DNA of 64,000 nt from Minisyncoccota bacterium (GTDB lineage: Bacteria > Patescibacteriota > Minisyncoccia > Phycocordibacterales > PALSA-1337): contig DATDYB010000005.1 in NCBI GenBank assembly GCA_036517115.1, positions 18,970 through 82,969 of the forward strand, given 5' to 3'. Of this stretch, positions 5,111-43,845 are shown one piece after another. Below the pieces are notes generated by a model, which did no database searches, was not told the DNA's origin, and saw only the letters and a program-made list of their open reading frames with translations. Numbering within the stretch: the first letter of the stretch is position 1; every line of letters begins with the position of its first letter. The translations under genes and the position numbers were made by a program.

Positions 5111-5115
5111 CTCCA

Positions 5116-7976: not shown

Positions 7977-8066
7977 AAAAATTTCGAGTATCTTAAATTA
8001 TAGCATTACGTTATCGCTCCATGCAATTTTCCCTTACGCATGGATTTTGTCATGATACGAAACATA

Positions 8067-8097
8067 AAATGTTGAACACCGAGTGTTCAACATTTTA
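8067..8097. promoter_or_regulatory. perfect 13-bp-arm palindrome AAAATGTTGAACA-CCGAG-TGTTCAACATTTT in a divergent promoter region (copy 1 of the AACACCGAGTGTT motif)
   Basis: Read directly. Sits between the divergent starts of genes at 7976 (-) and 8136 (+). Related copies at 22976-23010, 43428-43458 and 23230-23244. Confidence 0.5.
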
Positions 8098-8135
8098 TGA
8101 ATATTTGGCAGATATGGCTTCAGTTGCTATGATGC

Positions 8136-9659
8136 TTGCATATGAAAATATGCTTCTTTTTACAGAGACGCTTCGCGTCGATCGGACACGCGCTCGCGTG
8201 CAACCTGAAAGAGCGTCATGGCATCAAAGATTTCTGCGCCTATGTCAGTATGCGAGAGAGCTATGAATTTCTGACCAACCAGACGGACATCGCCTACACC
8301 TCACTCCTCTCCGACGAAGATATTCACAAAAAAATGAAAGACGAAAAACTCGATATGGAGTATCTCAAGAACCTCGAACGAGAATATGGAAACCCCAATC
8401 TGTGGCCGTATCTTTTCATCGACCGAATCGTCATGCACGGCCAGCTTATCCGCGAATACCCACACGACCGGCCGCTCTACACCGAGGAAGAAATGCTTCG
8501 ACTTCTCCAAGTTACCGCCAAGGAGATTATCGGCTTTCTCGATCGGGAGAAACCGGACGTGCTCGTTATCTCCGTAGTGGCTTCCCTTGGAAGCTCACTC
8601 CTCTATTTCATCGCTCAAAAGAAAGGCATAAAAACCATTAACCTTGAACAAACAAGGATCGGCAATCGCATCGCTCTTTCGGAGAGTTATAAAAATTTCA
8701 CCTGGGCGACCAAACGCGCTCGCAATAGAGAAGTGATCTTCGCGCCGTCAGTTATGAAAGACGCCCGCGCGTACATAGAACGGTTCCGCGCCAAACCGAC
8801 CGCATACAACTCGGTATACGATCCCGAAAAGAATCAGGTCAACCGCCGCTCGCAACTGCGATTTCTCCGCCCCGCCAATCTAGCATGGAGCATACTCTGG
8901 CACGCCAAGGAACTGTATCGCGATATCCGAAAAAAAAATCGCGATTTCGACGATGTGCGAATATGGTGGCTCCTGTGGGACAAAGTCAAACGCAAGGCAA
9001 GGACGATGCGCGGATATAACGACCTCTACAGCAGTGTTGATTGGAATAAGCCGTTCGCCTTTTATCCACTACATGTTGATCCTGAAATGGCCACCATGCT
9101 GCTCGCTCCGTGCTACACTAATCAGCCGGAGCTCATCCGCCAGATCGCTAGGGCGCTCCCTGTCGGCTACACGCTCTATGTTAAAGAGCATGTGGTGATG
9201 TCAGGATATCGGCCACGCTCCTATTACAGAGATATCGTCAAAATTCCAAACGTAAAACTGGTGCATCCGGCAGTGCGGGGATTTGATCTCGCCAAGGCGG
9301 CGAACATCGTTGTTACGATTTCAGGCACGGCCGGTTTCGAGGCCGTGATACTCGGCAACCCAACAATCACCTTCGGCGAAATATTTTATAATGACCTCTC
9401 ATTCGTCAAGCGGATCCGAAGCATCGAAGAACTTCCTTTCGTCATACGAGATCAGCTGAATCATTTCAAATGCGATGAAGAGGAGCTGACGCGGTATGTC
9501 GCGGCGCTTTTTGAAGAGTCCGTTGATGTTGACTATATGGACTTATGGCTCAACGCGAAATCAGATGAGGAGATCAGGCGCAATGCGGGAATAACGCGGT
9601 TGGCCGATTTATTGGCTAAGAAAATACTTGCGGTGACGGACAATACAACTAAATTATGA
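8136..9659 (+). CDS. Capsule_synth-family (KpsS/KpsC-like) polysaccharide biosynthesis protein, putative ulosonic/nonulosonic acid transferase
   Basis: 507 aa. C-terminal region ...LYVKEHVVMSGYRP...IVVTISGTAGFEAVILGNPTITFGEIFY matches the KpsS/KpsC/LpsZ pattern (KEHP...T.nST.G.EAl.lGkPv.t.G...Y). Confidence 0.5.
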   Translation: MHMKICFFLQRRFASIGHALACNLKERHGIKDFCAYVSMRESYEFLTNQTDIAYTSLLSDEDIHKKMKDEKLDMEYLKNLEREYGNPNLWPYLFIDRIVMHGQLIREYPHDRPLYTEEEMLRLLQVTAKEIIGFLDREKPDVLVISVVASLGSSLLYFIAQKKGIKTINLEQTRIGNRIALSESYKNFTWATKRARNREVIFAPSVMKDARAYIERFRAKPTAYNSVYDPEKNQVNRRSQLRFLRPANLAWSILWHAKELYRDIRKKNRDFDDVRIWWLLWDKVKRKARTMRGYNDLYSSVDWNKPFAFYPLHVDPEMATMLLAPCYTNQPELIRQIARALPVGYTLYVKEHVVMSGYRPRSYYRDIVKIPNVKLVHPAVRGFDLAKAANIVVTISGTAGFEAVILGNPTITFGEIFYNDLSFVKRIRSIEELPFVIRDQLNHFKCDEEELTRYVAALFEESVDVDYMDLWLNAKSDEEIRRNAGITRLADLLAKKILAVTDNTTKL

Positions 9660-10855
9660 AAATCACCTTCATCACCCCTAAAATAAATTTCGTCTCGGCC
9701 GGCGGCTCGGTCTTCGATATTGATCTTAAAATGAAGGCGTTTATGAAAATGGGAGCGGATATCCGATGCGTGACGCCCTTTTCCGACGACAACGACATGC
9801 CACAGAAACCGCCCTACCCCGTGATCGAAGAGCTCATCGCTAGACGAGGGCTCGCGGGCATCGCATGGGGCGTATATAAAATTTTGAAAAAATACGAAAA
9901 GGGCACGGACTTTTTCCATATTGACGGTCATATTTATTTTTACGGCGCGGGACTCTACAAACGTCTCGGCGGGAAAGTTCCCATCATTGCCTTTTTCAAC
10001 CGCGAGCAGCCCATCTGGGGACACGACAACCCGAAATATTCATTTGGTATGTTCGACGAGCCGGCGGACGCGCGATGGTGGAGAAAACTGTGGCTAAAAC
10101 TTCGGTATCAGATTGAGTCAAAAATTGGCACCTGGCTCGCCAACGCGATTGAGATCGGCACCTTCCATACCCCGACTCTCCAGAAGCGCTACAATGATTT
10201 CGGATTGCATATACAGTATCAACTCATCAATCCTGACTTGGCGGGCATTGACACCAAAGGTGCTTCTCGCAGTGTCGCCTCTTTCACGCATACGCCACTT
10301 CGGCTTGCCGCGGCGGGACGGCTCATTCCCACTAAAGGATTTGATCTTCTCTTCAAAGCTTTCTCGCTTGTACCACGCCGACAACGATTCACGCTAACCC
10401 TTGCCGGCGAAGGGCCTGATGAACCGCGCCTCCGAAACCTCGCCAAGGAATGGGGTATTGAAAAAGAAGTGAGCTTCACCGGCTGGCTAACCCATGACAA
10501 ACTCTTCCCCTTCTTTGAATCATCCGACGTGTTTCTCATGCCGCGTTGGCGGCCGGAACTTTCTTCGGTCGTGCTTATGGAAGCGATGTCCCACGGACTG
10601 GTGGCAGTAGTGCCGAAAGGTGGCGGGCTCGAATGGGCCGGCGGCAAAGCCATCGTCGGTTTTGATTTCGACGATCCGGAGAGTCTGGCTCGGGCAATTG
10701 ATTCTCTCGGCAATCCGGAATTTTTGGCGGAGAAATCCGCGGCCATCGGCAAGCGCATCGAATTTCTGCATTATGAAAATTGGTTGCCCGTCACCTATCT
10801 CTTTATGAAAAAAGTGTTGGCTGAAAAAAACAAAACAAAAAGAGCAGGACGCTAA
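9656..10855 (+). CDS. glycosyltransferase family 4 (GT-B, group 1)
   Basis: 399 aa. C-terminal domain LTLAGEGPDEPRLRNLAKEWGIEKEVSFTGWLTHDKLFPFFESSDVFLMP...VVLMEAMSHGLVAVV. Confidence 0.8.
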   Translation: MKITFITPKINFVSAGGSVFDIDLKMKAFMKMGADIRCVTPFSDDNDMPQKPPYPVIEELIARRGLAGIAWGVYKILKKYEKGTDFFHIDGHIYFYGAGLYKRLGGKVPIIAFFNREQPIWGHDNPKYSFGMFDEPADARWWRKLWLKLRYQIESKIGTWLANAIEIGTFHTPTLQKRYNDFGLHIQYQLINPDLAGIDTKGASRSVASFTHTPLRLAAAGRLIPTKGFDLLFKAFSLVPRRQRFTLTLAGEGPDEPRLRNLAKEWGIEKEVSFTGWLTHDKLFPFFESSDVFLMPRWRPELSSVVLMEAMSHGLVAVVPKGGGLEWAGGKAIVGFDFDDPESLARAIDSLGNPEFLAEKSAAIGKRIEFLHYENWLPVTYLFMKKVLAEKNKTKRAGR

Positions 10856-10898
10856 ACGCAAAATTGATTTCTAGTCGCCTGTCCTATATAGTAGTGGA

Positions 10899-12032
10899 AT
10901 GTCAAAAGTGGCTCTCATTAGCGGTTCAGCGGGTTTAATTGGCTCTGAGGCAGCCCGATTTTTCGCATCTAAAGGATTTCTCATTGTCGGTATCGACAAT
11001 GATATGCGCGCATATTTTTTTGGTAAGGAAGCGAGTACAGATTGGAATCGGGTGCGTGTTGAAAAAAAACTTGGTAAACAATACCTCCATTACAATGTGG
11101 ATATTCGAGACAACACTGCCCTCGAAAAAATTTTCAAAAAACATCAATTTAACATCATCATTCATACCGCTGCACAACCTTCCCACGATTGGGCAATGAA
11201 GGAACCTTTAACCGACTTCACGGTGAATGCTCTTGGTACTCTCCATATGCTCGAACATATGCGCAAATATTCACCCAAAGCCACCTTTATCTTTACCTCG
11301 ACCAATAAGGTGTACGGCGATCTGCCAAATGAGCTACCACTCATCGAAGGTGAGCAGCGTTTCGAGATCGACAAGAACCATTCATATCATAAGCATGGTA
11401 TCGACGAAACAATGAGTATCGATAACTCTATTCATAGTATTTTTGGGGCATCTAAGATAGCAGCGGACATCTTAGTGCAGGAGTATGGAAAATATTTTAA
11501 ATTAAATACTGGCGTGTTTCGAGGAGGCTGTCTCACCGGACCCTCACATAGCGGTACAACACTCCATGGATTCTTATCATATCTAGTAAAATGCATTGCA
11601 ATAGGTAAAAAATATACGATTTTTGGCTACAAGGGTAAACAAGTGCGTGATAACATCCACGCCTTTGACCTTATCAATATGTTCTGGCACTACCACCAGA
11701 AACCACGCAAGGGCGAAGTTTACAATGCTGGCGGCGGTAGACATTCAAACATTTCGATGAAGGAGGCGATTAAAAAAATTGAAAAAATATTAAGGAAAAA
11801 AGCTATTGTTGAATACCATGACAAGCCGCGCACAGGTGATCATATCTGGTATATTTCAGATGTCAGAAAATTTAAAGAGCATTATCCGAAATGGTATTAT
11901 AGCTATTCGATCGACGATATACTCGCTGAACTCTGTAAAGCGTATACGGTCAAGTCGCCAAAGCGGAAAACTTCCACTGGTTTAAGTGAGCGCAAGAGGC
12001 GTAGATCGAAGGGTCGTGTGGTGACAAAATAA
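10899..12032 (+). CDS. NAD-dependent epimerase/dehydratase family protein
   Basis: 377 aa. N-terminal [22 protein letters not shown] Rossmann motif and YGASKIAAD catalytic YxxxK. The last ~40 codons overlap the convergent gene 11903-13663. Confidence 0.75.
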
Positions 12033-13663
12033 TCTATCCTGTATTTTTTGAGCTCCTCACCGAAATCGTTTTTTATGAACATTTTGTATCGCTGTAGGAG
12101 TTCTTCGATCCGCATCGTTGACTGCGGATCGCGCTCTCGTCTGAAGAGATGGTTCCAGTCGGTGAAAAAATACTCGCGTACATCCACTTCATGTGATTCG
12201 AGGTATTCCCGCGCTCCGAGAGCAGTCACTCCCTCAAGCTTCATTTTGACCAAAAAGTTATGATAAAGTCTTTCTTCAGGAGGTACGGCGCCGAGATAGC
12301 CTGAAAGATAAACGTTAGAGCGCGTAAATGCGGGTACGAGCCTCATGAACTCTTCCTTCGGCTCGTCCGCAAGAACCACAGAGTCTTTGGGGGCATGAAG
12401 TGAGAGGTAGTCGAGCACCGGCGTATAGTCCTGCATTGCTCTGAAATGACCCATGGAATAGCTGTAGCTTCGCACACTCGCTATTCCATAGAAAAGACAT
12501 GCTCCGATCACGAGTGCCGAAGAAAGGTACAGTAACCAGGGTTTTTTGTGAATCATTCTAAAGTACACGACCGAGAGTACAATGTATGAAATCGGAATAG
12601 TGTATTGGACGAAATGATAGGGCCATATTGTTCTTCCGGTAATCAATTGCTGACTGAACACAACAATAGAAGTAGCGGCGAGCGCCAAAGAAAAAACAAT
12701 CCATTTTTCTTCCAATATTTTTTGCACCGTGCTTTTCCGATACAGCGTGACCAGCCCGATGATGAAAAGTACGATCGTGAGTGTTGCCACTTTGTTAATA
12801 ATCGGCGCGTGCGTGAGGATGAGGCCGTTCATTACCGCGGCGCGTGCGTCCTCTCCCGCTTTCGCCATGCCGAGCACATAGACTCCATCGACCACAACTA
12901 TGGACAGGACGGTAATCAGGAAGTATCGGAGTGTTAGCCACTCCTTGCGAATAAGTACATACACGATAAGGAGACAGAGGACGGTGAGCGCGATGGCCCA
13001 GGCGAAAATATAGCCGATACATGCTCCGGCGAGCAATCCGGCACCGATCGCGATAGGTACGGATGGCTTTTTAAAAAGCTTCCAAAGCATCAGGAGGTAT
13101 CCGAACAGAAAAAGTGCTCCGGTGATCGGGTTTACCGGTCGCGTCCACAGACTAAGCTGTGTGTCGTGGAGCGAATCGGTTACTACGGCAAGCGTTCGAT
13201 GAACATCGACAAAGTCGTACCCCAAGACCACCAGGAGGGCCGCGGAAAGTGCGGCAAGTGTTGCGATGCCACGGGACATCCCCTCCATAAGCTTACATAC
13301 CAGAAAATAGACGAGCAAGAAGAGCAGGGCTGGAAACAGGAACTTCGCCAACACGATGGCGGAAGCGAATGAAATGCCGAGCATCTTAGCCATACTGACG
13401 TAGAGGAATTCACCGATGGGCGGCACCATTGCCGGGCGATCTTTGTATTCATAGAACACAGGGGAAGCCACGGATGCGTGACCGTCGGCAATTTCTTGCA
13501 TCCGCGCCAGATAATATTCTTCGTTATTGAGATAGAAAAACGGAATGCCGCGATACTCGTTGCCGAGTGCTTGCGGAGCGAGCACTGCCGGCAGCACGCA
13601 TAGAAAGCCCGCGATGAGCGCACCGCACAGGACGGGTAAACATTGTTTAAAATTCTCTGACAT
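11903..13663 (-). CDS. polytopic membrane protein (~12 TM + C-terminal soluble domain), uncharacterized; paralog of 19623-21386
   Basis: 586 aa. Shares the N-terminal motif [13 protein letters not shown] (YY.DRMQEVADGH in the paralog), overall length and TM layout. Confidence 0.5.
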
Positions 13664-14274
13664 TAACTTTTTTGAAGTCTGACATAGAGCATATCCTCGA
13701 GCTTTATAAAGCGGTCCGGACTTGGAATGACGTTTAATTCCATGATCGGATATTCTTTAAAAAATCTTTTATTCTCTTCGAGCGTCCGGATGAATCTGCC
13801 CTGATCGTTTCGGATAAAAAGCTTGGTGATGACATTGTCTTTTTCCGGCTGTGATAGAGGATCGAAAAAATGCAGCATTCCTCCTTTTTTCAATTTTGAA
13901 AAAAGCACCGCGAGAATGCTCCTCCACGCTTCGTCGGAGAGATGGTGGCCGGCGCAGGCAACAAGCACATGGTCAAAGTCAGTCTCCGGAAACGGCTGTT
14001 CTAAAATATCCGCGCACACAAAGCGGATGTTCGGGTACGTACTCCAGTTTCTCGCCGCGGCGGCGATCGCTTCGCAATCAACATCAATTCCCAAGTAGTC
14101 GAAGTCGGCGAAAGCCGCAGTGCTGTTGCCCATCGAACAGCCGAAATCGAGCAGCTTGCCTTTGGTGTGAAAAACAGACGGATACAGCCCAAGCTTCCAC
14201 GCGTTGGCTCCGACGAATGTCTGGAATATATTCCAGACGAAAGGAATGTTGAGGATTTTTTTAATGAGAGACAT
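13663..14274 (-). CDS. class I SAM-dependent methyltransferase
   Basis: 203 aa. LLDFGCSMGNSTAAF motif I and acidic motif II (ADFDYLGIDVD). Confidence 0.7.
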   Translation of the reverse strand: MSLIKKILNIPFVWNIFQTFVGANAWKLGLYPSVFHTKGKLLDFGCSMGNSTAAFADFDYLGIDVDCEAIAAAARNWSTYPNIRFVCADILEQPFPETDFDHVLVACAGHHLSDEAWRSILAVLFSKLKKGGMLHFFDPLSQPEKDNVITKLFIRNDQGRFIRTLEENKRFFKEYPIMELNVIPSPDRFIKLEDMLYVRLQKS

Positions 14275-14303
14275 GAGTTATATACCAGAATGATAACGCT
14301 CTG

Positions 14304-14407
14304 CCGCACCATGCAAAAAAGTTCGCGCTCCGGGCCGCTGGTGTAGGCAACGGCATCTGTAGACGAGCCGGCAGGCCACCGTCTACGAACTTTTTTGCAT
14401 GGTGCGG
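14304..14407. repeat. intergenic palindromic element B (family 1): 22-bp perfect inverted repeat CCGCACCATGC-AAAAAA-GTTCG ... CGAAC-TTTTTT-GCATGGTGCGG enclosing the core CGCTCCGGGCCG...CCGTCTAC
   Basis: Read directly. The right arm overlaps the last 7 codons and stop of rfbB. The core is shared with element C (AAAAAAGTTCGCGCTnCGGGCCG ... CCGTCTACGAACTTTTTTG), while the outer stems differ but stay complementary. Confidence 0.6.
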
Positions 14408-22941: not shown

Positions 22942-22975
22942 GCGAATCAGTATATTCTATTTCCTCCCCACCGCC

Positions 22976-23010
22976 AAATGTTAAACACCGAGTGTTGAAC
23001 AGTGTTGAAC
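22976..23010. promoter_or_regulatory. copy 2 of the AACACCGAGTGTT palindrome motif (AAATGTTAAACACCGAGTGTTGAACA, plus a tandem GTGTTGAACA), upstream of the GT2 gene start
   Basis: Read directly. Imperfect relative to copy 1. Confidence 0.45.
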
Positions 23011-23021
23011 AAAAAGCTCCA

Positions 23022-23088
23022 CACCCCGACAAAAAAGTTCGCGCTACGGGCCGACAGGCCTCCGTCTACGAACTTTTTTGTCGGGGTG
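23022..23088. repeat. intergenic palindromic element C (family 1): CACCCCGAC-AAAAAA-GTTCGCGCTACGGGCCGACAGGCCTCCGTCTACGAAC-TTTTTT-GTCGGGGTG
   Basis: Read directly. Same A6/core/T6 architecture and core as element B, with a different but perfectly compensatory outer stem. A short direct repeat CTCCA flanks it on both sides. Lies between the RT stop and the next gene. Confidence 0.6.
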
Positions 23089-23093
23089 CTCCA

Positions 23094-24086
23094 CTACCTC
23101 TGCTTTTTTGTGATCTGTTGTTGGAGTTTATACCCCTCCCCATGCTTCAAAAGCCCGAGATAGGAAGCGATTGTTGCTGTGCTTGGTTTATCATAGCACC
23201 GCGCAAACATTCTCCTCTTTGTTGTCGTTCTTAACACTCGGTGTGTGGGGAAATGCACCCAGCCGAGGAAGTCCACGCCAGAGGCAAGGGTTTTTATGAA
23301 TACTTTGTCAGGGTGAAGTGACAATTTCAATCGTTCTGAAAGAAATGTGCCGATCTTCACTATCAGATCTTCTAGGTATGCTTTACTGTGGTGCAGAATG
23401 ACGAAGTCATCGGCATAACGAATGTAGTACTTCACTTTCTGTGTATGTTTCACCCACTGATCGAACTCGTTCATGTAGACATTGACTAGGAGTTGGGAGG
23501 TGAGGTTGCCGAGAGGGAGACCAACTCCGAGAGTAGCACTATGGAAACTCTCGATGATATTCTGAAGAAGCCGAAGGATGTCGCTGTCGGATATGTGTTT
23601 TTCGAGAATTGAGAGCAATATCGGCTGATCGATAGAGGCGAAGAACTTGCGGATGTCGCATTTTAATACGAAGCATGTCCGATAACCACAATCCTCCACC
23701 CATGTCGAAAATGACGTAAACCTTCGGAGTGCTTTATGCGTCCCCTTACCCAACCTGCATGAATATGAATCATAGATAAATATTTGGTTAAAAAATGGAT
23801 ATAGCGCACGGAACACTGCGTGATGAACTATTCTGTCTCTCACACTTGCCTTATGGATGTCTCTCGGCTTCGGATCATTTATTTTGAAATGTCCGTATCC
23901 GCCATGTTGATAACTTCTTGATGATAGATCTTGTTGTAATGACATAAGATTCGGCATGAGACGGAGGCCGAACTCTTGAACGTCCGCTCTCTTCGTTTTT
24001 CCTTTTAAAAAAATTCTCCACGAGGTAAGTAGATTTTCCAAAGAGATGATATTCTTATACTGATGAGTAAAATAAACTTGATGCAT
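23094..24086 (-). CDS. diversity-generating retroelement reverse transcriptase
   Basis: N-terminus YKNIISLENLLTSWRIFLKGKTKRADVQEF...KINDPKPRDIHKASVRDRIVHHAV. Motif GLPLGNLTSQLLVNVY (the [ILV]GxxxSQ variant characteristic of DGR RTs, instead of QGxxxSP). YADDFVILHH catalytic motif. ~330 aa. The ORF track starts at GTG 24152; the in-frame ATG at 24086 (MHQVYF...) avoids overlap with avd. Confidence 0.85.
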   Translation of the reverse strand: MHQVYFTHQYKNIISLENLLTSWRIFLKGKTKRADVQEFGLRLMPNLMSLQQDLSSRSYQHGGYGHFKINDPKPRDIHKASVRDRIVHHAVFRALYPFFNQIFIYDSYSCRLGKGTHKALRRFTSFSTWVEDCGYRTCFVLKCDIRKFFASIDQPILLSILEKHISDSDILRLLQNIIESFHSATLGVGLPLGNLTSQLLVNVYMNEFDQWVKHTQKVKYYIRYADDFVILHHSKAYLEDLIVKIGTFLSERLKLSLHPDKVFIKTLASGVDFLGWVHFPTHRVLRTTTKRRMFARCYDKPSTATIASYLGLLKHGEGYKLQQQITKKQR

Positions 24087-24117
24087 TCCATAAATAGTAC
24101 CCACCCCCCGCACGGTT

Positions 24118-24465
24118 TTGCCAGTGCTTGAGAAATTGAAAGATGGATACACATTGTGGCACAGATGTCACGAACTGATGCCAAAAACACAGCGATATTC
24201 ACTTGGCAACAGAATTGATAAATTGTTTATAGAGGCGATCGAGGCGACAGCAACGGCAGCTTTCCTTCCCCCACAAGAAAAGGTGGCGTGGGTTCGTTTA
24301 GCACTTCGAAAAACCGACGTCATACAAGTGTTATTATTGATCTGCTTAGAGACTGATTCATTCGAAGAAAAGCATTTTGTTGATGTATCGATGAAGCTTG
24401 CGGAGATTGGTAAAGATCTAGGCGGGTGGAACGGCAAACTTACAAAACAAAACTCCGGCGGATAA
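24118..24465 (+). CDS. Avd-like accessory variability determinant (four-helix-bundle protein)
   Basis: ~115 aa. ...QRYSLGNRIDKLFIEAIEA... and C-terminal ...EEKHFVDVSMKLAEIGKDLGGWNGKL, which resembles the bAvd C-terminus (..AEVGRILGSW..). TTG start in the track, and other starts are possible. Divergent from the RT. Confidence 0.65.
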   Translation: MPVLEKLKDGYTLWHRCHELMPKTQRYSLGNRIDKLFIEAIEATATAAFLPPQEKVAWVRLALRKTDVIQVLLLICLETDSFEEKHFVDVSMKLAEIGKDLGGWNGKLTKQNSGG

Positions 24466-24487
24466 ATCCTACGGAGAAATGAATAAG

Positions 24488-24615
24488 TTGCGGAAGGACG
24501 AAGGCGAAACCGCCATTGTCGTTCCAGTTGTTGTCCGGCCTATCGTAGTTGGCGTTCAAACAGCGACCGTCATTGTCACGGTTCGCATAGAGCACGTTCG
24601 GATCGCCGTCGGAAT
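24488..24615 (-). repeat. DGR template repeat (TR), 128 bp, non-coding
   Basis: Near-identical to 24931-25058. At all ~23 mismatch positions the TR carries T on the + strand (A in the coding sense of the minus-strand target). In that frame the TR reads S D G D P N V L Y A N R D N D G R C L N A N Y D R P D N N W N D N G G F A F V L P Q (Asn AAC/AAT-rich). Confidence 0.85.
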
Positions 24616-24844
24616 GCGCGAGATTTCATCCCTGCAACTGTAAAATCATAGCTAGTTTTTGTAATTTTAAATTACCCAAAACCCCGCGCCAAGTAGCTTC
24701 ATTTTTTTAAAGAAGTGTCTACATGTACCCTCCGTCTAGAATGATAATTCTAAAGACGCTCTCAATACATGGATACTGGTTTCGGCAGTCCTGACATTCT
24801 GATGCCAAAACAGATTCGCCTACTTCCGTCTGTAAGTATATATG

Positions 24845-24869
24845 AAAAAACCTCGACGTGTGTCGAGGT
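24845..24869 (-). terminator. hairpin ACCTCGAC-GTGT-GTCGAGGT followed by T6 (on minus strand) ~60 nt downstream of the VR/stop; target-gene terminator and possible DGR-associated stem-loop
   Basis: Read directly. A6 on the plus strand precedes the stem. Confidence 0.5.
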
Positions 24870-24900
24870 TGTGTAAAAACCAAAGCCAAGGGACCGAGGG

Positions 24901-25659
24901 CTAGGTTTGAGAAACCGAAGTCGAGGGCTCTTGCGGAAGGACGAAGGCGAAACCGCCATTGCCGTACCAGCTGAAGCCCGGCCCACCGTAGAAGGCGTCC
25001 AAACAGCGACCGTCATCGTCACGGCCCGCACAGAGCACGCTCGGATCGCCGTCGGAATCATTGATCGCGTCATGCATCGCTACGATGTACCAGAGACCGA
25101 GTTCTTCGAGTTCGGCATCGGTGAGAAGGTCTCGAATAAGCGGACCAACTTCCCAATGAGGTGTCTTCCACCCCCGAACCTCTGCGTCTTTGCGGATTGT
25201 TTTGGTGTACCGATCCTTGTTCTTGATCTTATTACCGGGCCGGACAGCGATGTTATACGTCACGCCGGTGGTAGGTGCGTCCGTTGCCCTCCTTAGAACA
25301 TTCTTGCCCCAGTCGGAAACGCGATAGGGCTGCCCCTTGGCATCCTTCTTTTCCTTTTCGAAATAGGTAATCCACTGTTCATTGGTACGACCGTTGGAAG
25401 TGACTTCGAAGTAAATAGTTCCTTCGGAGTCAATTACCCATTTGGAACCCGCCGGAATGGCAGGAATGACTGGCTTGATCGTTTCGCCGCTTTGATCAAT
25501 GAGTACGAGCTTGGCTTTGCCTCTTACGAGCATCGATACAGCCGTGAAGTTTTCTTCTGTCGACAACCATTCAACGTCATTGGTGTCGCCGTCGTTGCGT
25601 TTAATAGCCGTCTCCAATTTGTGACCTGCACCTTGAGTTAGTACGAACGTGCTGTTCAT
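24901..25659 (-). CDS. DGR target (variable) protein with C-terminal C-type-lectin/FGE-like variable region
   Basis: 252 aa. C-terminal ...GLWYIVAMHDAINDSDGDPSVLCAGRDDDGRCLDAFYGGPGFSWYGNGGFAFVLPQ contains the VR. No obvious signal peptide. N-terminal domain unrecognised. Confidence 0.8.
   Translation of the reverse strand: MNSTFVLTQGAGHKLETAIKRNDGDTNDVEWLSTEENFTAVSMLVRGKAKLVLIDQSGETIKPVIPAIPAGSKWVIDSEGTIYFEVTSNGRTNEQWITYFEKEKKDAKGQPYRVSDWGKNVLRRATDAPTTGVTYNIAVRPGNKIKNKDRYTKTIRKDAEVRGWKTPHWEVGPLIRDLLTDAELEELGLWYIVAMHDAINDSDGDPSVLCAGRDDDGRCLDAFYGGPGFSWYGNGGFAFVLPQEPSTSVSQT
24931..25058 (-). repeat. DGR variable repeat (VR) at the 3' end of the target gene
   Basis: Encodes ...DSDGDPSVLCAGRDDDGRCLDAFYGGPGFSWYGNGGFAFVLPQ. 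Ends 28 nt before the stop codon. Differs from the TR only at TR-adenine positions. Confidence 0.85.
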
Positions 25660-26997: not shown

Positions 26998-27149
26998 AAT
27001 TACTATAAGTCGGAATAGAATCGATAAAATCGCTCATATGCGAGGCGCCGGCGAGTGAGAAGCGAATACTTGTAGCTTCGCAAGACCTTTTGAGACATTT
27101 TCTGAAATGTCCAAAAGGTATACAGTTCCTGTAAGGAATTGCGACCATT

Positions 27150-28148: not shown

Positions 28149-28149
28149 A

Positions 28150-29427: not shown

Positions 29428-29429
29428 GA

Positions 29430-30557: not shown

Positions 30558-30558
30558 A

Positions 30559-30933: not shown

Positions 30934-30991
30934 GGCGAATTACAACGTATTTCTATCACATAACACTTCAAAATACAAACCGTAGCCAAAG

Positions 30992-35667: not shown

Positions 35668-35685
35668 AGGCTGTATTGTAACAAA

Positions 35686-37545: not shown

Positions 37546-37546
37546 A

Positions 37547-39205
37547 TTAGAATGAATAAATTTCTACATACGGACCGGTCATGCGAATATTCAAAAGTGT
37601 TTGGAAGGGCGAATGCATGTTGTTGGCGATGTCGGTCAAGGAACGTACCTTTTCTGTCGGATACAACGAACGGATAAGCTTGGCAGATACAGGCAGTTTC
37701 ATTTTCAACGCTTGCGCTTCTTCCTCGTTCCAGAAAGAGATGACGGCGTATTTGAATGAAAGGCTCTTGTCCGCGATAGCGCCGAGCTTGCCGTCAATGC
37801 GCGCGAAATATCGTGGCTTCCCGAGAAGCTCCTCTGGCAAAGAAACAATAGCCCTTCGTTCGGTCGTGTCCGCGATTACGCTTTTCTCAGCTGCATACGC
37901 CGCGGCTTTTTTATTCTCCGGAATATCAATATAAAAATTATTGGTAATAAGAGAGGTATCGGCGGGAAGCGTATTCATCACTAAGCTCCGCGCCGATAAA
38001 AGCGTGTTCGGTAGGATGATGGCCCTTGTCCACGCAAGCGGTAAAAGAAGTATGAACAAAACAAGTGTCGAATAGAGGGTGCGCCGAATATACTGGTTCT
38101 GTACCATATCAAAAACAGCGACGATGAAAAACGCCGTGGGAATGACGAGAAACGGCATGGTCGAAACGATGAAGCGTGGTTCCGAATGAACGGCATAGGC
38201 GATGCTTAGGATGTGAACGGCAATATACGCGAACAATCCCAGGGCAATTTCCTTTTTTCTTTTGTACAAATACACAAACGCCGGAATAGAGAGAACGGCC
38301 AAAAGCGTATCGTAGGTGGAAAATATCCAGGCGTAATATTTCAGATTATATAAAAACCCTTCGACTGCTCCCGCCGCTCGTTCGACCGATGGTTGGGTGA
38401 GATAGACGAGCACCCCGGCCGGATGGAGAATGTAGTACACAAGGAGGACGAGGACGAGCGAGACTGTTGTCGCCGTGAAATACTGAAGATGCCTTTTCAA
38501 TTGACCGTGTTCCTTAAAGCGGCGGATCTTTGAAAGAAAGAATACAACAAAGACGGCGTACACGAAGCCGCCGACCAAATGAACACCGTAGGTCAAAAAG
38601 GAAGTGAGGGCAACCCACGCGTAGTCTCGCCGTTTCGGATCCTCTTTTTCATTCCATGAGAGATACGCCATGAGGGCGATGAGGAGCAGGGCAATCTGAA
38701 GCGACCACGCACGGCCAAAATGCGTCACCTGAAAAAACATCAAGTTGAACGACAAGAGAAATGACGCGAGAAGCGCGGCCTTCTCACTCCCCCCTATTTT
38801 CTTCATAACACGGTAGATAAGGAAGCCTGCGAGTGTCGCGAAAAGCGCCGCAATGAGACGAGCGAATGGAAGCAATATGCCGTAGTCGAGCATGACGAAA
38901 TTTTTAAGGGATTCGATGTCGGGGAATATGCCGCTTCCCAAAAGAAACAGGACGAGAATGAGATAAAAAGGAATCTGAAGATAGACCGTCATCGGCAAAT
39001 GATAGAAGGAAGCGTAGTCCGGCCGGAGGGTATGGTCATCGAACATCTTAAAGATTGTGCTCATGATCGTCACCTCGTCGCCCACGTTATTCTTCATGGG
39101 AATGCCGTAAAAAAGTCCGGGAACATGCAGTAAAAAAGCAGCGATGAGAATAATCGCGAGCACCCACTGTGGAGAAGAAAGTTTTAACGCTTGTATGCGG
39201 AACAT
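37547..39205 (-). CDS. PMT/ArnT-like membrane glycosyltransferase (GT39/GT83 family)
   Basis: 552 aa, polytopic. N-terminal ...LHVPGLFYGIPMKNNVGDEVTIMSTI... Confidence 0.65.
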   Translation of the reverse strand: MFRIQALKLSSPQWVLAIILIAAFLLHVPGLFYGIPMKNNVGDEVTIMSTIFKMFDDHTLRPDYASFYHLPMTVYLQIPFYLILVLFLLGSGIFPDIESLKNFVMLDYGILLPFARLIAALFATLAGFLIYRVMKKIGGSEKAALLASFLLSFNLMFFQVTHFGRAWSLQIALLLIALMAYLSWNEKEDPKRRDYAWVALTSFLTYGVHLVGGFVYAVFVVFFLSKIRRFKEHGQLKRHLQYFTATTVSLVLVLLVYYILHPAGVLVYLTQPSVERAAGAVEGFLYNLKYYAWIFSTYDTLLAVLSIPAFVYLYKRKKEIALGLFAYIAVHILSIAYAVHSEPRFIVSTMPFLVIPTAFFIVAVFDMVQNQYIRRTLYSTLVLFILLLPLAWTRAIILPNTLLSARSLVMNTLPADTSLITNNFYIDIPENKKAAAYAAEKSVIADTTERRAIVSLPEELLGKPRYFARIDGKLGAIADKSLSFKYAVISFWNEEEAQALKMKLPVSAKLIRSLYPTEKVRSLTDIANNMHSPFQTLLNIRMTGPYVEIYSF

Positions 39206-39208
39206 ACT

Positions 39209-40150
39209 TTAAAAATTAATCTTTTTCCCGATGGCATAGGTCTCCTTACCAGACGCTTCCCGCGACACACGGATGAAAAACTCGGCAAGAATGCCCATAA
39301 GGATGAAGTTGATTCCCACGATGAAAAAGAGGGCGGTGAAAATCGGCAAGGGCGTCGATATGAAATCCTTGAGGCCGGCGAGCTTGTAGTAGATTGCCAA
39401 GAGAGCGCACACTCCGGAAATAAAAAAAGAGAGAAAGCCGAATCCGCCGAAAAAATGCGACGGCCGATCCTGGTATTTAAATAAGAATTTAATAACAAGG
39501 AGATCCAACAACACTCTCCCTATCCTCGACATGCCGTACTTTGAAACACCGTGAACGCGAGGACGGTCACTGACCGCGATCTCCCCGACCCTGCCTCCCT
39601 GCCAGGCGGCATACGCCGGAATAAACCGATGCATCTCGCCATAGAGCTTCACTGGCTTCAAGTATTCTTTTTTATAGGCTTTGAGGGTGCAACCGTAGTC
39701 ATGGAGCTTTACGCCCGTCACGAGAGAGATGAGCGCGTTTGCCATGCGTGAAGGCAGCTTTCTTCTGAACAGTTCTTTTTTCCAGCGGTCCTTCCTCCAT
39801 CCGGAAACTACATCGTACCCTTCGTTCATTTTTTCCAAAAGACGCGGAATGTCTTTAGGCGAATTTTGCAAATCGGAATCCATCATGACAATAATATCCC
39901 CCTCGGCGAAGGCGATACCGGCGGCGATGGCCGCGGTTTGTCCGCAATTTTTCTGGAAACTGAGTATCCTAAAATTTTTGTTCCCGCGTAGGGCGACCTC
40001 GAGCGCGGGAAGACTCGCGTCCTTTGACCCGTCATCGACGAAAATGACTTCGGATGAGGAAGTTGTGGTACAAAACTCGTTTAATTCACCCGCTAAAATG
40101 GGGATATTCTTCTCTTCGTTGTATACGGGGATGACGATTGACAGCTTCAT
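39209..40150 (-). CDS. GT2 polyprenyl-phosphate glycosyltransferase (ArnC/GtrB-like) with C-terminal TM helices
   Basis: MKLSIVIPVYNEEKNIP...VIFVDDGSKD...IIVMMDSDLQNSPKDIPRLL. The ORF track start at 40213 adds 21 aa; the Met of MKLSIV (about 40150) is the likelier start. Confidence 0.8.
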   Translation of the reverse strand: MKLSIVIPVYNEEKNIPILAGELNEFCTTTSSSEVIFVDDGSKDASLPALEVALRGNKNFRILSFQKNCGQTAAIAAGIAFAEGDIIVMMDSDLQNSPKDIPRLLEKMNEGYDVVSGWRKDRWKKELFRRKLPSRMANALISLVTGVKLHDYGCTLKAYKKEYLKPVKLYGEMHRFIPAYAAWQGGRVGEIAVSDRPRVHGVSKYGMSRIGRVLLDLLVIKFLFKYQDRPSHFFGGFGFLSFFISGVCALLAIYYKLAGLKDFISTPLPIFTALFFIVGINFILMGILAEFFIRVSREASGKETYAIGKKINF

Positions 40151-40231
40151 TGCCTTGTACTCTACCACATCGGAACAACTTTTTGAATGAAACTTAGGTA
40201 TATATCCCACCATCAGGTAAAAAGATCCATA

Positions 40232-40374
40232 AACAACCCTCGAAGAAGCCCTCGGGTATTCCTAAAAAGTGGCCGGATAATTTTTCTGGTGAAAAATTTC
40301 CTAGGACTCCGCGCCGCCGCGCTGCGTAGCCACATTTTTAGAAACACCTTCGGGCTTTGTTCTTCGAGGGTTGT
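40232..40374. repeat. intergenic palindromic element D (family 2): imperfect long inverted repeat AACAACCCTCGAAGAA.../...TTCTTCGAGGGTTGTT enclosing A5-GTGGC-[CCGGATAATTTTTCTGGTGAAAAATTTCCTAGGACTCCG-GCGC-CGCC-GCGC-TGCGTAG]-CCAC-T5
   Basis: Read directly. A 39-nt core is identical to element E (61957-62055). The second small hairpin shows stem covariation (GCGC/GCGC here, GGCT/AGCC in E) with the loop CGCC conserved. Confidence 0.6.
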
Positions 40375-40415
40375 TCCTTGCGCTTTACTGCGAGTTCTTT
40401 TTGGGCCGGCGAAGC

Positions 40416-41138
40416 TTATGAATGCATCCTCTTTCTCATCTTCCAGATGTTTTTAAGTTGGCGGATGATTTCGACAAGAGGTGAGACTTTGCTCGCGCGA
40501 AGCTCGTCCCGAACTTCGCGCCAGGTTACGGGTACTTCGAGCACGCGGTATCCTTTTCTGCAAGCGAGAATCATGAGCTCAGTATCCCAGAACCATCCCG
40601 CGTCCTGAGTCTCCGGAATGAGCTCATGAACAATCTTTCTACTGAATGCCTTAAAGCCGCATTGAGCGTCCTTGAAATTCACTCGAAGCACAATTTGGAG
40701 CAAAATATTATAGATCTTTGAAAGTAGTTTACGTTTAAAGCTTCTTTTGGCGTCGGCATATGGCACATACCGTGATCCCGTCACCAGGTCATACCCCTCG
40801 TCGATTTTTGAAACAATGAACGGAAAATCTTTGAGATCGGTAGCAAGGTCGGCATCCATATAGGAGTATATATCGTAGTCCGGTTTTCTCGCCCACGCCT
40901 TTCTGATGGCTATCCCCCGTCCTGCGTCCGACACCCGATCAGTGACAATAGAAGGATATTTTTTCTTTAAATCCTCGGCAATGGAAAACGTCCGGTCACT
41001 CGAGTTGTTATCGAGGATAAGTATCGTCCACGCGTAGCCGGAGAGGTGCGCCTTGGCATGCTCGAGCACCGCAAAAACGCTTTTTTCGAGCACAATTTCC
41101 TCGTTATAGCATGGAATGGTGATGAGAAGTTTTTTCAT
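40416..41138 (-). CDS. GT2-family glycosyltransferase
   Basis: MKKLLITIPCYNEE...ILILDNNSSDRT...YSYMDADLATDL. The ORF track start at 41234 overlaps the upstream gene; the internal Met at about 41138 is the likelier start. Confidence 0.75.
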   Translation of the reverse strand: MKKLLITIPCYNEEIVLEKSVFAVLEHAKAHLSGYAWTILILDNNSSDRTFSIAEDLKKKYPSIVTDRVSDAGRGIAIRKAWARKPDYDIYSYMDADLATDLKDFPFIVSKIDEGYDLVTGSRYVPYADAKRSFKRKLLSKIYNILLQIVLRVNFKDAQCGFKAFSRKIVHELIPETQDAGWFWDTELMILACRKGYRVLEVPVTWREVRDELRASKVSPLVEIIRQLKNIWKMRKRMHS

Positions 41139-42205
41139 GGTTGCATCATGATAGAGGTAATTTTTTCCGCGAATCGCTCCACGCCGTGACAGCGCACCAC
41201 GATCTCGCGCATGTCTTGCCGCAGCGCCGACCACTCCGAGGGCGGCAGGGCATAAAGGGTCAGTATGGCGCGGGAGAGTCCCTCGTAATCCCCTTTTTCA
41301 AAAAAGAGGAGTGGCAAGTATTTTCCAAGCACTGCTTTGTACGCTTCGTTGCACGTCACAACCGGCATAGCGGCTGCCATGGCTTCAAGCCCCGCCTTGT
41401 CGAGACTTCCAGTCAGGCTGGTGTTGATAAACATGTCGCTTGCGTGAAGGTACGGGAGCATGTTCCTGTATTCTACTTTGCCGTGCATGGTTACCACTCC
41501 CTCAAGGCCAAGTGAAGTAATCATCGTCTTGAGACTTCGCTCGTATGCAACTTGCTCAGGCACTCCAGCCGCTCCAACAATCGAGAGTGAGAGCGGCATG
41601 GCATTTTTGATACGTGAGGCCGCCTTTAAAAGCGTAGGGTGGTCTTTGACCGGAGAAAGTCTGCCGACCATGATAAGACGGCTTCGCGAAGCACTGGTGA
41701 CCTCTCTCGGCCTGAAATAATCGGTATCAATGCCCTGCCCCACCACTCGAATTTTTCCACTACGAAGACGGCAACCGCTCGCAGTCGACGTGAAGATACT
41801 TCGGGAGAATAGCGCGGCAATCCGAAGGGTAAACGGGGTATGCCCGTGGGCGTACCACAAAAATACTTTCTTACCCATAAGCATCCAGAAAGGCGCTCCG
41901 AGGAGAACATACATCTGGTTCATATGCACGAAGACCGCGTCGTAGCTATTCCTTTTTCGTACGATATGTCGCAAGAATCTCCACGTATATTTGATTCTTT
42001 TCGTAATTCGTAATTCAAAATTCACCGCTCGTTCTTTCCCTAATGAATGTACCTGTACATTTTCTGGCAATTGATGCTCCCCCTCATACAGGCAAATAAC
42101 CTCCACCCTTTCAACTTTTTTTGAAAACTCTTCCACCCAGCGGTGCACAAAGCCGAGCACGTCGTCATGCATATCCATTTTCTGAGTGATGAATAGGAGT
42201 TTCAT
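41135..42205 (-). CDS. glycosyltransferase family 4
   Basis: MKLLFITQKMDMHDDVLGFVHRW... N-terminal domain and C-terminal ...GLEAMAAAMPVVTCN... The track start 42256 is probably a 17-aa over-extension. Confidence 0.75.
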   Translation of the reverse strand: MKLLFITQKMDMHDDVLGFVHRWVEEFSKKVERVEVICLYEGEHQLPENVQVHSLGKERAVNFELRITKRIKYTWRFLRHIVRKRNSYDAVFVHMNQMYVLLGAPFWMLMGKKVFLWYAHGHTPFTLRIAALFSRSIFTSTASGCRLRSGKIRVVGQGIDTDYFRPREVTSASRSRLIMVGRLSPVKDHPTLLKAASRIKNAMPLSLSIVGAAGVPEQVAYERSLKTMITSLGLEGVVTMHGKVEYRNMLPYLHASDMFINTSLTGSLDKAGLEAMAAAMPVVTCNEAYKAVLGKYLPLLFFEKGDYEGLSRAILTLYALPPSEWSALRQDMREIVVRCHGVERFAEKITSIMMQP

Positions 42206-42206
42206 G

Positions 42207-42662
42207 TTACGCGCGAAAAATGATTTTTTTGTAGACAAAATAACTACCCACGGCAATCGACAAGCCGATAATTATTTGGGATAAAATATACCAGATGCCG
42301 AATCTGTCCACCAGTACGTACATGAGCGCGGTGTTGAGGGCGAGATTGACGAGCGCCACTAAAAAATATTTTCCGACCTGGATATGCATGTCCGTCGTCC
42401 TATCGTCCCTGAATGTCCAAAATTTTTGAAGCGTAAAACTGATGCAAAAAGCAAATACGAACGCGATGATTGCCGAGGTGATGTACCAGATGTCAAGAAC
42501 GTCGGTAAAGACGTACAAGAACCCCACGTCGACAACAGCCGCCGTGCCGCCGGCGATAACGTATTTGATCTTCCGTCGGTGGGTAAAAGCGTGACCGTAG
42601 AAAAAAGGAAACGCCCGTTCAACGGAGCGGAGAAACCGATAGTAGGCTCTTTTGATGCTCAT
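42207..42662 (-). CDS. GtrA-family small membrane protein (polysaccharide synthesis / flippase-associated)
   Basis: ~150 aa with 4 TM. ...KYVIAGGTAAVVDVGFLYVFTDVL... and ...FTLQKFWTFRD... are typical of GtrA-like proteins. Confidence 0.6.
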   Translation of the reverse strand: MSIKRAYYRFLRSVERAFPFFYGHAFTHRRKIKYVIAGGTAAVVDVGFLYVFTDVLDIWYITSAIIAFVFAFCISFTLQKFWTFRDDRTTDMHIQVGKYFLVALVNLALNTALMYVLVDRFGIWYILSQIIIGLSIAVGSYFVYKKIIFRA

Positions 42663-42672
42663 AATGCGACTA

Positions 42673-43845
42673 TTATACCCCATTACCTTTAAGCGCTTCC
42701 CGCCATGACTCTTGGTAGCGGAGCGTGTATGCTTCTTTGGAAATCACGTGCGACCGCGCGGCGCGGTATGCAGCAACGGCGAACGTTTCTCTTTTCTCTT
42801 TGTTTGCGACAAGCTCGAGCAGTGCGCCGACCAGACACTTCGAATCGTTGACACCGCATACGAAGGCGCTCTCGGCGTCAACGAATACCTCTCCCGCGAT
42901 GCCGACATCGGTCGTCACGATGGCGGACCCCGAGAGGGCCGCTTCAACGAGTGACATGCCATATCCTTCGTACGACGAAGTGGAGAGAACGATGTCGGCC
43001 GACGCATAATACGAAGCGAGATTTTCCTGCCAACCTTCAAAGCGAACGGAGTTAGTAAGTCGCAGATTGTGCGTCATGCGCTCTAAAGCGGCAAGCTCCG
43101 AGCCGGAACCGACGATGACAAGACCGGTTTTGGGGAACTTGTTTACAACCGCTGCAAATGCCTGCAAAGCTGTCGCAATATCCTTTTCCGGTTCGAGGCG
43201 CGATGCCATAAGTATGATCGTTTCGAATTCTGGATATTTTTTGCAGAGATCAAAGGACGGCACCTCATTTTCTATTTTTTCTGCATCCACCAAAATCGGA
43301 AGAACAGTAATTTTCTTATCATGAATCTTAAACCATACGTCGTGAATCAACGCACGTTTGATTCGCTCCGATACGACGCGAACGGCATCGGCGCTACGGA
43401 GTACGCGACCGGCGATCATCACCCGCATCATGTTCAACACCGAGTGTTTAACAAAATATGGGCTTAAAAAATCAGTGTGTATTTGAACATGGAGCCGCAC
43501 CTTCCCCGTTTTTTTAAGCGCGCTCCCGACCATGCCGGACTCAAAGGGATCCTGGACCGTGACTAGAGAGTCTCTCTGGTTGAGATTCCTCTCCTTGATT
43601 ATTCTCTTGCCGACGCGAATAGCATCGAAAATGTAGTGCCATCTGTTTCTCGAGTTGGTGGGATAGAGCCAAACATTCTCGGCAATCTTCTCTTCCTTGA
43701 AGGCAGGATCATCAGTCGTGCGCCCCGTATTAAAAACCACAATATGAAGCTCATTTACCAGAGTGCCATAGAGGCGGGTACGCGCTCGTACCGCACTCCC
43801 CTCCTTAAAAATATTTCTGTCGGATCCGATGCTTATTACGTTCAT
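42673..43845 (-). CDS. glycosyltransferase family 4
   Basis: ...LVIVGSGSELAALERMTHNLRLTNSVRFEGW...SSYEGYGMSLVEAALSGSAIVTTDVG... The track start 43890 overlaps the upstream gene; the Met at about 43845 fits. Confidence 0.8.
   Translation of the reverse strand: MNVISIGSDRNIFKEGSAVRARTRLYGTLVNELHIVVFNTGRTTDDPAFKEEKIAENVWLYPTNSRNRWHYIFDAIRVGKRIIKERNLNQRDSLVTVQDPFESGMVGSALKKTGKVRLHVQIHTDFLSPYFVKHSVLNMMRVMIAGRVLRSADAVRVVSERIKRALIHDVWFKIHDKKITVLPILVDAEKIENEVPSFDLCKKYPEFETIILMASRLEPEKDIATALQAFAAVVNKFPKTGLVIVGSGSELAALERMTHNLRLTNSVRFEGWQENLASYYASADIVLSTSSYEGYGMSLVEAALSGSAIVTTDVGIAGEVFVDAESAFVCGVNDSKCLVGALLELVANKEKRETFAVAAYRAARSHVISKEAYTLRYQESWREALKGNGV
43428..43458. promoter_or_regulatory. copy 3 of the AACACCGAGTGTT palindrome motif (ATCATGTTCAACACCGAGTGTTTAACAAAAT), located inside the GT4 coding sequence (encodes ..VKHSVLNMM..)
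   Basis: Read directly. A 23/25-nt match to the intergenic copies is unlikely by chance. Confidence 0.4.

Follow-up and report, generated by a model that had tools for sequence, protein, structure and literature searches.

A 64,000-nucleotide stretch of a Minisyncoccota genome (assembly GCA_036517115.1, contig DATDYB010000005.1, positions 18,970 to 82,969), hereafter the window, carries three exact copies of a 23-bp palindrome, TGTTNAACACCGAGTGTTNAACA, in which two arms surround a 3-nt centre (TGTTNAACAC-CGA-GTGTTNAACA). The palindrome is probably the cognate DNA site of a Y1 HUH enzyme, one that occurs widely in Parcubacteria/Paceibacteria (Minisyncoccia) and resembles the REP-associated tyrosine transposases (RAYTs). 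As the partner of a RAYT-like enzyme, it would be a sequence of the repetitive extragenic palindromic (REP) type. The window is likely to hold three dispersed copies of the commonest dialect of this low-copy REP/RAYT-type system. The sites in the window are listed below.

Site 1, 8063 to 8099: full palindrome with its core at 8070-8092, TGTTGAACAC-CGA-GTGTTCAACA, an exact match to the motif.
Site 2, 22979 to 23011: full motif at 22979-23001, TGTTAAACAC-CGA-GTGTTGAACA, an exact match whose arms are imperfect at the N position.
Site 3, 43431 to 43453: full motif inside a glycosyltransferase family 4 (GT4) gene at 42673-43890 (minus strand), read as F-V-K-H-S-V-L-N-M.
Partial site, 23230 to 23246: centre and one arm in opposite orientation, in the 3' part of the reverse transcriptase (RT) gene of a diversity-generating retroelement (DGR) at 23094-24152 (minus strand).
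Possible second dialect, 52246 to 52268: ACTTGGAAGC-TCG-GCTTCCAAGT, in an rsmI-like methyltransferase gene at 52099-52800 (minus strand).

The recurrence of the palindrome had been noticed in an original prediction made from the letters of the window, and it is real: shuffled sequence yields 0.02 expected copies of the 23-mer, far from the three observed, and a search with a 13-nt core gives the same result. Four copies had been counted at that time. Three are full sites, and the fourth, in the RT gene, has the centre and a single arm (13 contiguous specified bases at 23233-23245, the left arm matching at 4 of 9 positions). The sequence CCGAG is on the plus strand in all three full sites, and the motif can alternatively be read as two 9-bp mini-palindromes, TGTTnAACA, with CCGAG between them. 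The half-site GTGTTNAACA occurs eight times in the window against 0.44 expected, with seven of the eight inside the full sites, and site 2 has a third one in tandem, GTGTTGAACA at 23002-23011. The three copies read G/C, A/G and C/T at their N positions, which confines the GAAC-N7-GTTC symmetry described earlier to site 1. The doubts already expressed about a LexA/Cheo box were sound, and this type of reading is rejected since the N positions are neither conserved nor symmetric in sites 2 and 3.

Site 1 lies between the divergent genes 6984-7976 (minus strand) and 8136-9659 (plus strand). Its arms, previously put at 13 bp, reach 17 bp through unrelated, non-conserved bases on either side. Site 2 is located 38 nt upstream of the start of a glycosyltransferase family 2 (GT2) gene (22941, minus strand); a long hairpin resembling a terminator stands about 10-20 nt away, at 23022-23088. 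Site 2 is also present in all five related contigs (L001-L005). The partial site encodes HRVLR, and an RT orthologue in contig L076 has HR(I/V)LR through different codons. It shows no significant folding and may be a relic or a coincidence, the chance probability being estimated at roughly 0.03. Two readings tied to this neighborhood were tried and rejected. A cis-element of the DGR does not fit a motif that also occurs at a great distance from the DGR, as well as in genomes and loci that have none. An invertible promoter, with 22984 and 23233 as inverted repeats around 236 bp, would need as its second site what is just half a copy, within a conserved RT peptide, and neither site 1 nor site 3 has a partner.

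The window matches contigs from the Rifle aquifer metagenome (ANAN16 scaffold_1025 and one of 96.9 kb), and NCBI files its GT4 protein under Candidatus Paceibacterota, in keeping with an organism of the Patescibacteria. The palindrome extends well beyond this genome. Public genomes, one per species, were scanned with the pattern TGTTNAACACNNNGTGTTNAACA, in which the central triplet was left free. At least 119 stretches matched, nearly all of them from metagenome-assembled genomes (MAGs) of Patescibacteria; the matches listed include Nomura-, Niyogi-, Zambryski-, Sung-, Kaiser-, Taga-, Vogel- and Nealsonbacteria, Paceibacterota and Minisyncoccia. The centre is CGA or TCG in 118 of the 158 matches listed, although the pattern did not demand it, and the two N positions are complementary in 108. 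Flanking positions are not conserved (at most 0.5 bit each, with a weak A-rich bias on the 5' side and a T-rich bias on the 3' side). The copies thus share only the palindrome itself and are not parts of a larger known repeat, a possibility raised in the original prediction. In 25 of 152 copies the symmetry runs on for 4 bp or more into the non-conserved flanks, where 3.3 such copies would be expected. Intergenic copies are enriched relative to the intergenic share of these genomes and, among the copies listed, occupy convergent (21), divergent (16) and tandem (31) settings; many lie 1-10 nt past a stop codon. The host and neighboring genes are unrelated housekeeping genes, including those for MetRS, PheT, PyrF, YchF, SecA, LigA (DNA ligase), MurB, Fmt, TruB and a release factor, among others. 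Most loci are singlets, and doublets of the kind known as REPINs or bacterial interspersed mosaic elements (BIMEs) are rare. A check suggested in the original prediction, whether copies mark the boundaries of horizontally acquired segments, revealed no pattern of GC shifts or contig breaks at the motif.

The IMG/VR database returned one match, the motif being nearly absent from viral contigs, and a phage origin was rejected on this ground. Tandem motif copies were also seen in two contigs outside Patescibacteria bins, L059 ('uncultured Methanosarcinales archaeon') and L106 ('Candidatus Omnitrophota'). These are probably mis-binned contigs of the Candidate Phyla Radiation (CPR); a CPR-host association or gene transfer is less likely. 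A search of the literature found neither the motif sequence nor any link of REP or RAYT to Patescibacteria or the CPR.

Only one protein family recurs beside the palindrome. When all open reading frames (ORFs) within 1.5 kb of a motif were clustered, a Y1_Tnp protein was found at 23 loci among the matches listed, and the next family at five. The protein has 210-220 residues and scores 35-41 bits against Pfam PF01797 (Y1_Tnp), for which the cut-off is 23. Its catalytic residues H90 and H92 (the His-x-His motif) and Tyr150 are invariant in an alignment of 20 sequences, and N89-H90-F91-H92 and Y150 are invariant in an alignment of 32. The AlphaFold model (predicted local distance difference test, pLDDT, 78; predicted template modeling score, pTM, 0.79) has as its best Foldseek match in the PDB the structure 4ER8, E. 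coli TnpA-REP with a REP hairpin (E-value 1e-6, TM-score 0.70 on the target), followed by the TnpA proteins of IS608 and ISDra2. A word-indexed search retrieved 1,989 homologs, which their sources call 'transposase' or 'hypothetical' where a name is given. All named organisms belong to Patescibacteria/Parcubacteria groups or are unclassified 'bacterium' MAGs, and most clusters at 90% identity comprise only a few contigs. No locus that was read contains more than one RAYT-like gene. In some lineages the gene adjoins tRNA-Gly(CCC), in others tRNA-Thr(CGT), and in others neither. Three roles had been offered for the palindrome originally: operator, recombination or integration target, and restriction- or protection-related site. 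The second comes closest, in that the consistent partner is a gene for a Y1 HUH (RAYT-like) recombinase or transposase bracketed by the motif. Nothing points to a role in restriction or protection.

The gene and its palindromes have a fixed arrangement. In most of 20 loci found through the motif, one palindrome lies 12-31 nt upstream of the RAYT-like gene, a second lies inside it at +170 nt, and a third lies 0-19 nt past the stop codon, so that gene and bracketing palindromes form a unit of about 750 bp. The upstream copy overlaps the likely promoter or 5' untranslated region (UTR) of the gene. Because these loci had been ascertained through the motif, an unbiased sample of 80 further metagenome loci was picked by protein patterns alone. 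An internal palindrome, defined as a 3-nt centre with 8 or more of its 10 arm positions paired, is present in 70 of the 80, and in 54 of those it stands at exactly +170. The internal 23-mer was then used as a probe for the flanks, the same arms being called at no more than 2 mismatches in 20 within 110 nt. By this measure 51 of 66 protein-ascertained loci have the same arms upstream and 51 of 67 have them downstream (about 76%); shuffled flanks never gave fewer than 6 mismatches.

The arms themselves come in dialects. The TGTTNAACAC dialect accounts for only about 40-45% of the protein-ascertained loci, and other loci have TGGTCAAAGC, TGTCCNAAGC, TGTTAAAAGC, TGTTGGAAAC, TGCAACAC or further arms. 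Common to all dialects are the C-CGA/TCG-G centre and an outer TG...CA. Arms vary between lineages, and each locus uses one dialect at all three positions. The peptide encoded by the internal copy follows the DNA dialect (FVKHSVFN, FVLSRALD, GQSRALT and others) and falls in a segment of the model, residues 51-61, with pLDDT below 50. In several MAGs the variant at the centre is also common to the RAYT-flanking and the distant copies of the same genome, for instance CCG in four copies in VMFT, CAG in LCRY and JBAYHD, and TCA in CAYJBK and CAYYYM. Enzyme gene and palindromes thus appear, from sequence comparison, to evolve in concert, which is a hallmark of REP/RAYT systems. We know of no earlier description of a palindrome copy within a RAYT gene.

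A possible second dialect is found in the window at 52246-52268. It has perfect 10-bp arms and a C-YSR-G centre, matching the RAYT palindromes in arm length and centre, and chance would give 0.05 palindromes of such an architecture per window. The rsmI-like protein has five extra residues at this point compared with two homologs, and the central AAGCCGAGCTT is identical to that of the RAYT-flanking dialect TGTCCTAAGCCGAGCTTTGGACA. The organism may therefore host a second dialect, for which this site is a candidate member. In another genome, a distant RAYT-like gene (44% identity) in L008 is flanked at 3600-3700 and 4300-4345 by a different palindrome, GTGAGCGATATC-CGATATCGCTCAC, and the TGTTNAACAC motif is found at three other loci of that genome, which suggests that two RAYT/palindrome pairs coexist there. 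Tandem arrays of half-sites are also frequent beside RAYT-like genes (L045 at 5060-5135 and 6255-6305; L048 at 587-640) and downstream of the gene in L179 and L182. The arrays are irregular, with 3-7 half-site units 1-10 nt apart, and their overlapping full palindromes are predicted to form alternative hairpins centred on the CYSRG spacer or on the 9-mer.

The way such a system would act can be sketched from the biochemistry of E. coli TnpA-REP and of IS608 (PMC3333891, PMC3479197). By analogy, the enzyme would bind the palindrome as a hairpin on single-stranded DNA and would cut and rejoin the strand beside it, spreading or homogenizing copies in trans. The copies in the window would be by-products or co-opted sites instead of a locus-specific switch. 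They would be tolerated in intergenic DNA and at codons whose peptide is already close to V-x-H-S/R-V-F/L-N.

Several observations weigh against placing the palindrome in a REP/RAYT-type system. Against the NCBIfam RAYT equivalog model NF047646 the protein reaches 33-40 bits, below the cut-off of 80, and it is best described as a distant relative and not an equivalog. No RAYT-like gene was found in the window or in the roughly 84 kb that was read of the 96.9-kb contig, and because of this the link to an enzyme in this particular organism rests on analogy. The same 84 kb contains no further palindrome copies. RAYT-like loci were recovered from the same Rifle samples (L151, L152, L187, L158, L160, L180 and L200) and are not assignable to the genome of the window. 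The flank profile shows no GTAG/CGTC tetranucleotide at the foot of the palindrome. Copy number is low, with at least 1-4 exact copies per contig of 200-360 kb and at most 5 per MAG among the matches listed, all of these counts being lower bounds. About 45% of the copies listed are coding (68 of 153 in ORFs, 85 of 153 intergenic), unlike classical REPs. The GT4 copy was formed without an insertion or deletion, and simple insertion of a mobile 23-mer does not explain it. Folding is a further difficulty. As single-stranded DNA, site 1 reaches -16.5 kcal/mol (z = -9.8), site 2 forms a weak hairpin (-5.5 kcal/mol, not significant), and sites 2 and 3, with their mismatch at N, fold no better than shuffled sequence. 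The conserved feature is therefore the sequence and not the stability of a hairpin.

The coding copies show how closely this sequence is kept. Site 3 does lie within a GT4 coding sequence, as originally proposed: Pfam Glyco_transf_4 covers residues 52-204 and the motif falls at about residues 146-153. Compared with homologs, codons have been replaced there with no change in length, and the family consensus at this point, F-x-K-[E/H]-S-[F/I/L]-L-N, is already near the translation of the motif. The two coding copies of the window had been described as being in different frames; the centre is in the same codon register in both, GT4 having V-K-H-S-V-L-N and RT having T-H-R-V-L-R in flipped orientation. 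Elsewhere, 40 of 49 coding copies are in the frame V-x-H-S/R-V-F/L-N. Four GT4 orthologs were chosen by peptide alone (45-56% identity), and all have the motif at the same codons: perfect in L131, with one mismatch in L133, two in L132 (symmetric to each other) and three in L134. His-Ser is CAC-TCG in all four. Third-codon positions within the motif are identical at 6-8 of 9 sites between pairs, and the corresponding fraction in the flanking 120 codons is 0.29-0.55. Pairs of MetRS, PheT, PyrF and YchF genes repeat this pattern; they were selected through the motif and carry that ascertainment bias, from which the GT4 set is free. The constancy of third-codon positions bears out the original view that the signal is at the DNA level and points to coding copies that are maintained, or repeatedly re-created, as nucleotide sequence. 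By nearest-neighbor identities, the closest relatives of the motif-bearing GT4s lack the motif. The bearers are scattered among close relatives without it, a pattern that repeated gain or repeated loss may have produced.

A different account, possible and yet clearly the less probable one, does without a selfish REP. The palindrome would be a phylum-wide cis-element maintained by the host, which a domesticated HUH enzyme reads and possibly rewrites, and the whole would constitute an undescribed system for maintaining or marking the genome. As parts of the same account, the three copies borne by the gene, one of them in a poorly structured loop, would serve as a self-templating or autoregulatory device, and the remaining copies, in housekeeping and cell-envelope genes, would have arisen by substitution at codons already suited to them before being held at synonymous sites.

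It is unlikely that the enzyme is incidental altogether. Under that explanation the palindrome would be a duplex-bound element of the host, perhaps organizing the chromosome in the manner of parS or matS and kept by selection where it stands, with the RAYT-like gene as no more than one locus that carries it or is regulated by it. Low copy number and very deep conservation of sequence agree with such an element, as do the orthologous positions with conserved synonymous sites in housekeeping genes, the origin of the GT4 copy by substitution and not by insertion, and arms that stay conserved at weakly folding sites too. The orientation of the centre is unbiased with respect to gene strand (41 versus 47) and GC skew (44 versus 42), which also suits a duplex-bound site; an expectation of lagging-strand targeting was rejected for lack of such a bias. 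What a host element leaves unexplained is the fixed three-copy arrangement at the Y1 gene despite differing synteny, and the joint change of the arms and that gene. Apart from the Y1 family, no protein family recurs beside the motif, and ParB is absent among its recurrent neighbors, linkage to ParB or oriC having been looked at no further. The canonical parS consensus is the 16-bp TGTTNCACGTGAAACA, from which the motif, with its TGTTNAACAC arm and 3-nt spacer, differs by inspection.

An operator for a transcription factor, either of the glycan or cell-envelope cluster, as first suggested, or of a stress regulon such as SOS, is now very improbable. Site 1 is flanked by two predicted -35 boxes, at 8053 (minus strand) and 8105 (plus strand), and two window copies lie just upstream of such boxes; the copy upstream of the RAYT-like gene likewise overlaps a probable promoter or 5' UTR. 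One glycan locus contains all three window copies, a density in 64 kb above the 1-4 per 200-360 kb seen elsewhere, and the motif is present in four distant GT4 orthologs and beside a GT4 pair in L009. This local density and the recurrence at GT4 genes are not otherwise explained, and the operator therefore keeps a small probability. The same 23-mer, however, is found in many Patescibacteria genomes next to functionally unrelated genes (tRNA synthetases, SecA, LigA, MurB, PyrF, YchF and a release factor) with no recurrent regulator gene. Its settings are convergent, divergent and tandem alike, many copies abut stop codons, close to half are coding, and the N positions break the GAAC/GTTC reading.

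A role in RNA as a hairpin, whether as an intrinsic terminator working in both directions or as a site for mRNA stabilization or processing, is just as hard to sustain. The 17-bp stem and T-rich tail of site 1 earned it a terminator-like call, and the A-rich and T-rich bias of the flanks, the copies just past stop codons and the enrichment of palindromic extensions would all be expected of such hairpins. Site 1 nevertheless stands between divergent genes, where a terminator is not needed, and coding copies occur in both orientations. Terminators do not keep the sequence of a 20-nt stem across a group of phylum rank, the folding of sites 2 and 3 does not exceed that of shuffled sequence, and Rfam has no family match anywhere in the window.

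A DNA-uptake signal for natural transformation is the least credible proposal: CPR bacteria encode competence machinery, and lineage dialects, a preferred coding frame and copies at gene ends do recall the DNA uptake sequence (DUS) of Neisseria and the uptake signal sequence (USS) of Pasteurellaceae, but at about one per 20-300 kb against about one per kb the motif is orders of magnitude too rare, isolated half-sites are not enriched outside full sites, and the three-copy arrangement at the Y1 gene is left without a reason.

Other repeats occur in the window. A complete DGR occupies 23094-25659 in the middle of the glycan locus, with the RT gene at 23094-24152 (minus strand), the template repeat (TR) at 24488-24615 and the variable repeat (VR) at 24931-25058, at the 3' end of the ORF 24901-25659 (minus strand). 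TR and VR are 128 nt long and 88% identical, and every difference falls at a template adenine. Gene calling gave a bAvd-like gene in L001 and L002, which match this region, and the two strains differ in called lengths (339 versus 287 residues for RT, 95 versus 134 for bAvd). The hairpin beside site 2 belongs to a family of long intergenic hairpins (23022-23088, 14304-14407 and 4903-5065, also 61958-62054 and 40264-40339), referred to as 'element C' in the original prediction. Their arms, ...AAAAAAGTTCG / CGAACTTTTTT..., are 100% complementary over 20-22 nt and enclose an inner segment, CGNGCCGNCAGGCC..CGTCTACGAAC, that is conserved in part. Each hairpin is situated downstream of a gene on the minus strand, and Rfam has no match for them; they are probably bidirectional terminators or another repeat family. 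An 87-nt direct repeat, whose two units (54907-54993 and 56181-56267) are 93% identical and show internal inverted symmetry, lies on either side of the ORF 55024-56160. By its position in L128 this ORF is a Glycos_transf_4 family gene, and the repeat is unrelated to the palindrome.

If the palindrome is indeed the partner of the RAYT-like enzyme, a RAYT-like system appears in the CPR, in streamlined and repeat-poor genomes. To our knowledge, REP/RAYT systems have been described mainly in Proteobacteria, where REPs are species-specific and number tens to hundreds of copies. Three features would be unusual: a single 23-bp dialect kept across many candidate phyla, a copy inside the gene of the enzyme that co-evolves with the flanking copies, and copies embedded in essential genes and constant at synonymous sites. 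REP/RAYT is a standard example of a domesticated transposase with a still unexplained benefit to the cell. Both this benefit and the copying of REPs become testable with one small protein and one 23-mer. For annotation, a conspicuous repeat in CPR glycan loci can be accounted for with no local regulator, and genes and sites of this kind acquire a simple sequence signature by which they can be found.

Among known systems, uptake sequences and parS are the more remote. DUS, USS and parS are likewise short conserved sequences within and between genes, with a preferred frame, dialects and maintenance at synonymous sites. The parS sequence is different, the density of DUS and USS is far higher, and nothing in those systems matches the close linkage, physical and evolutionary, with a Y1 HUH gene. 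Insertion sequences of the IS200/IS605 family are closer. The TnpA proteins of IS608 and ISDra2 share the Y1 HUH fold, and these elements have, within a unit of about 750 bp, a small transposase gene with a subterminal hairpin at either side. In the Patescibacteria loci the palindrome is the same on both sides, whereas IS608 and ISDra2 have distinct left and right ends. In addition, the loci read show no multi-copy identical elements, synteny with tRNA genes is conserved, the motif has a single match in viral contigs, and the fold is nearer to TnpA-REP than to IS608 TnpA.

The closest parallel is with REP/RAYT systems, such as E. coli TnpA-REP (YafM/RayT) with REP/BIME and Pseudomonas RAYTs with REPINs, in which a Y1 HUH enzyme has intact catalytic motifs (PMC3333891, PMC5581495). 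As in those systems, the gene is bracketed by its own palindrome, which in several MAGs has distant copies as well; the gene is apparently single-copy with synteny conserved within sub-lineages; palindrome and enzyme co-vary between lineages; and the closest solved fold is that of TnpA-REP. For the E. coli protein, binding and cleavage of the palindrome have been assayed by electrophoretic mobility shift and cleavage assays (PMC3333891). The Patescibacteria system departs from REP/RAYT in its internal copy at +170, in a low-confidence loop of the model, and in a palindrome with 10-bp arms, a conserved 3-nt centre and no GTAG/CGTC head. One dialect spans many candidate phyla and is not species-specific. 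A genome has a handful of copies, not tens to hundreds; in the survey of Bertels et al., flanking 16-mers occur about 12-14 times for RAYT groups 1 and 4 and 57-140 times for groups 2 and 3 (PMC5581495). Nearly half of the Patescibacteria copies are coding, most are singlets and not REPIN or BIME doublets, and the protein stays under the NCBIfam RAYT cut-off. Low copy number, the missing tetranucleotide head, one deep dialect, coding copies, copies born by substitution and the internal copy are the reasons for not filing it as a proven member. The system would work like REP/RAYT: its kind is known, and the variant is new.

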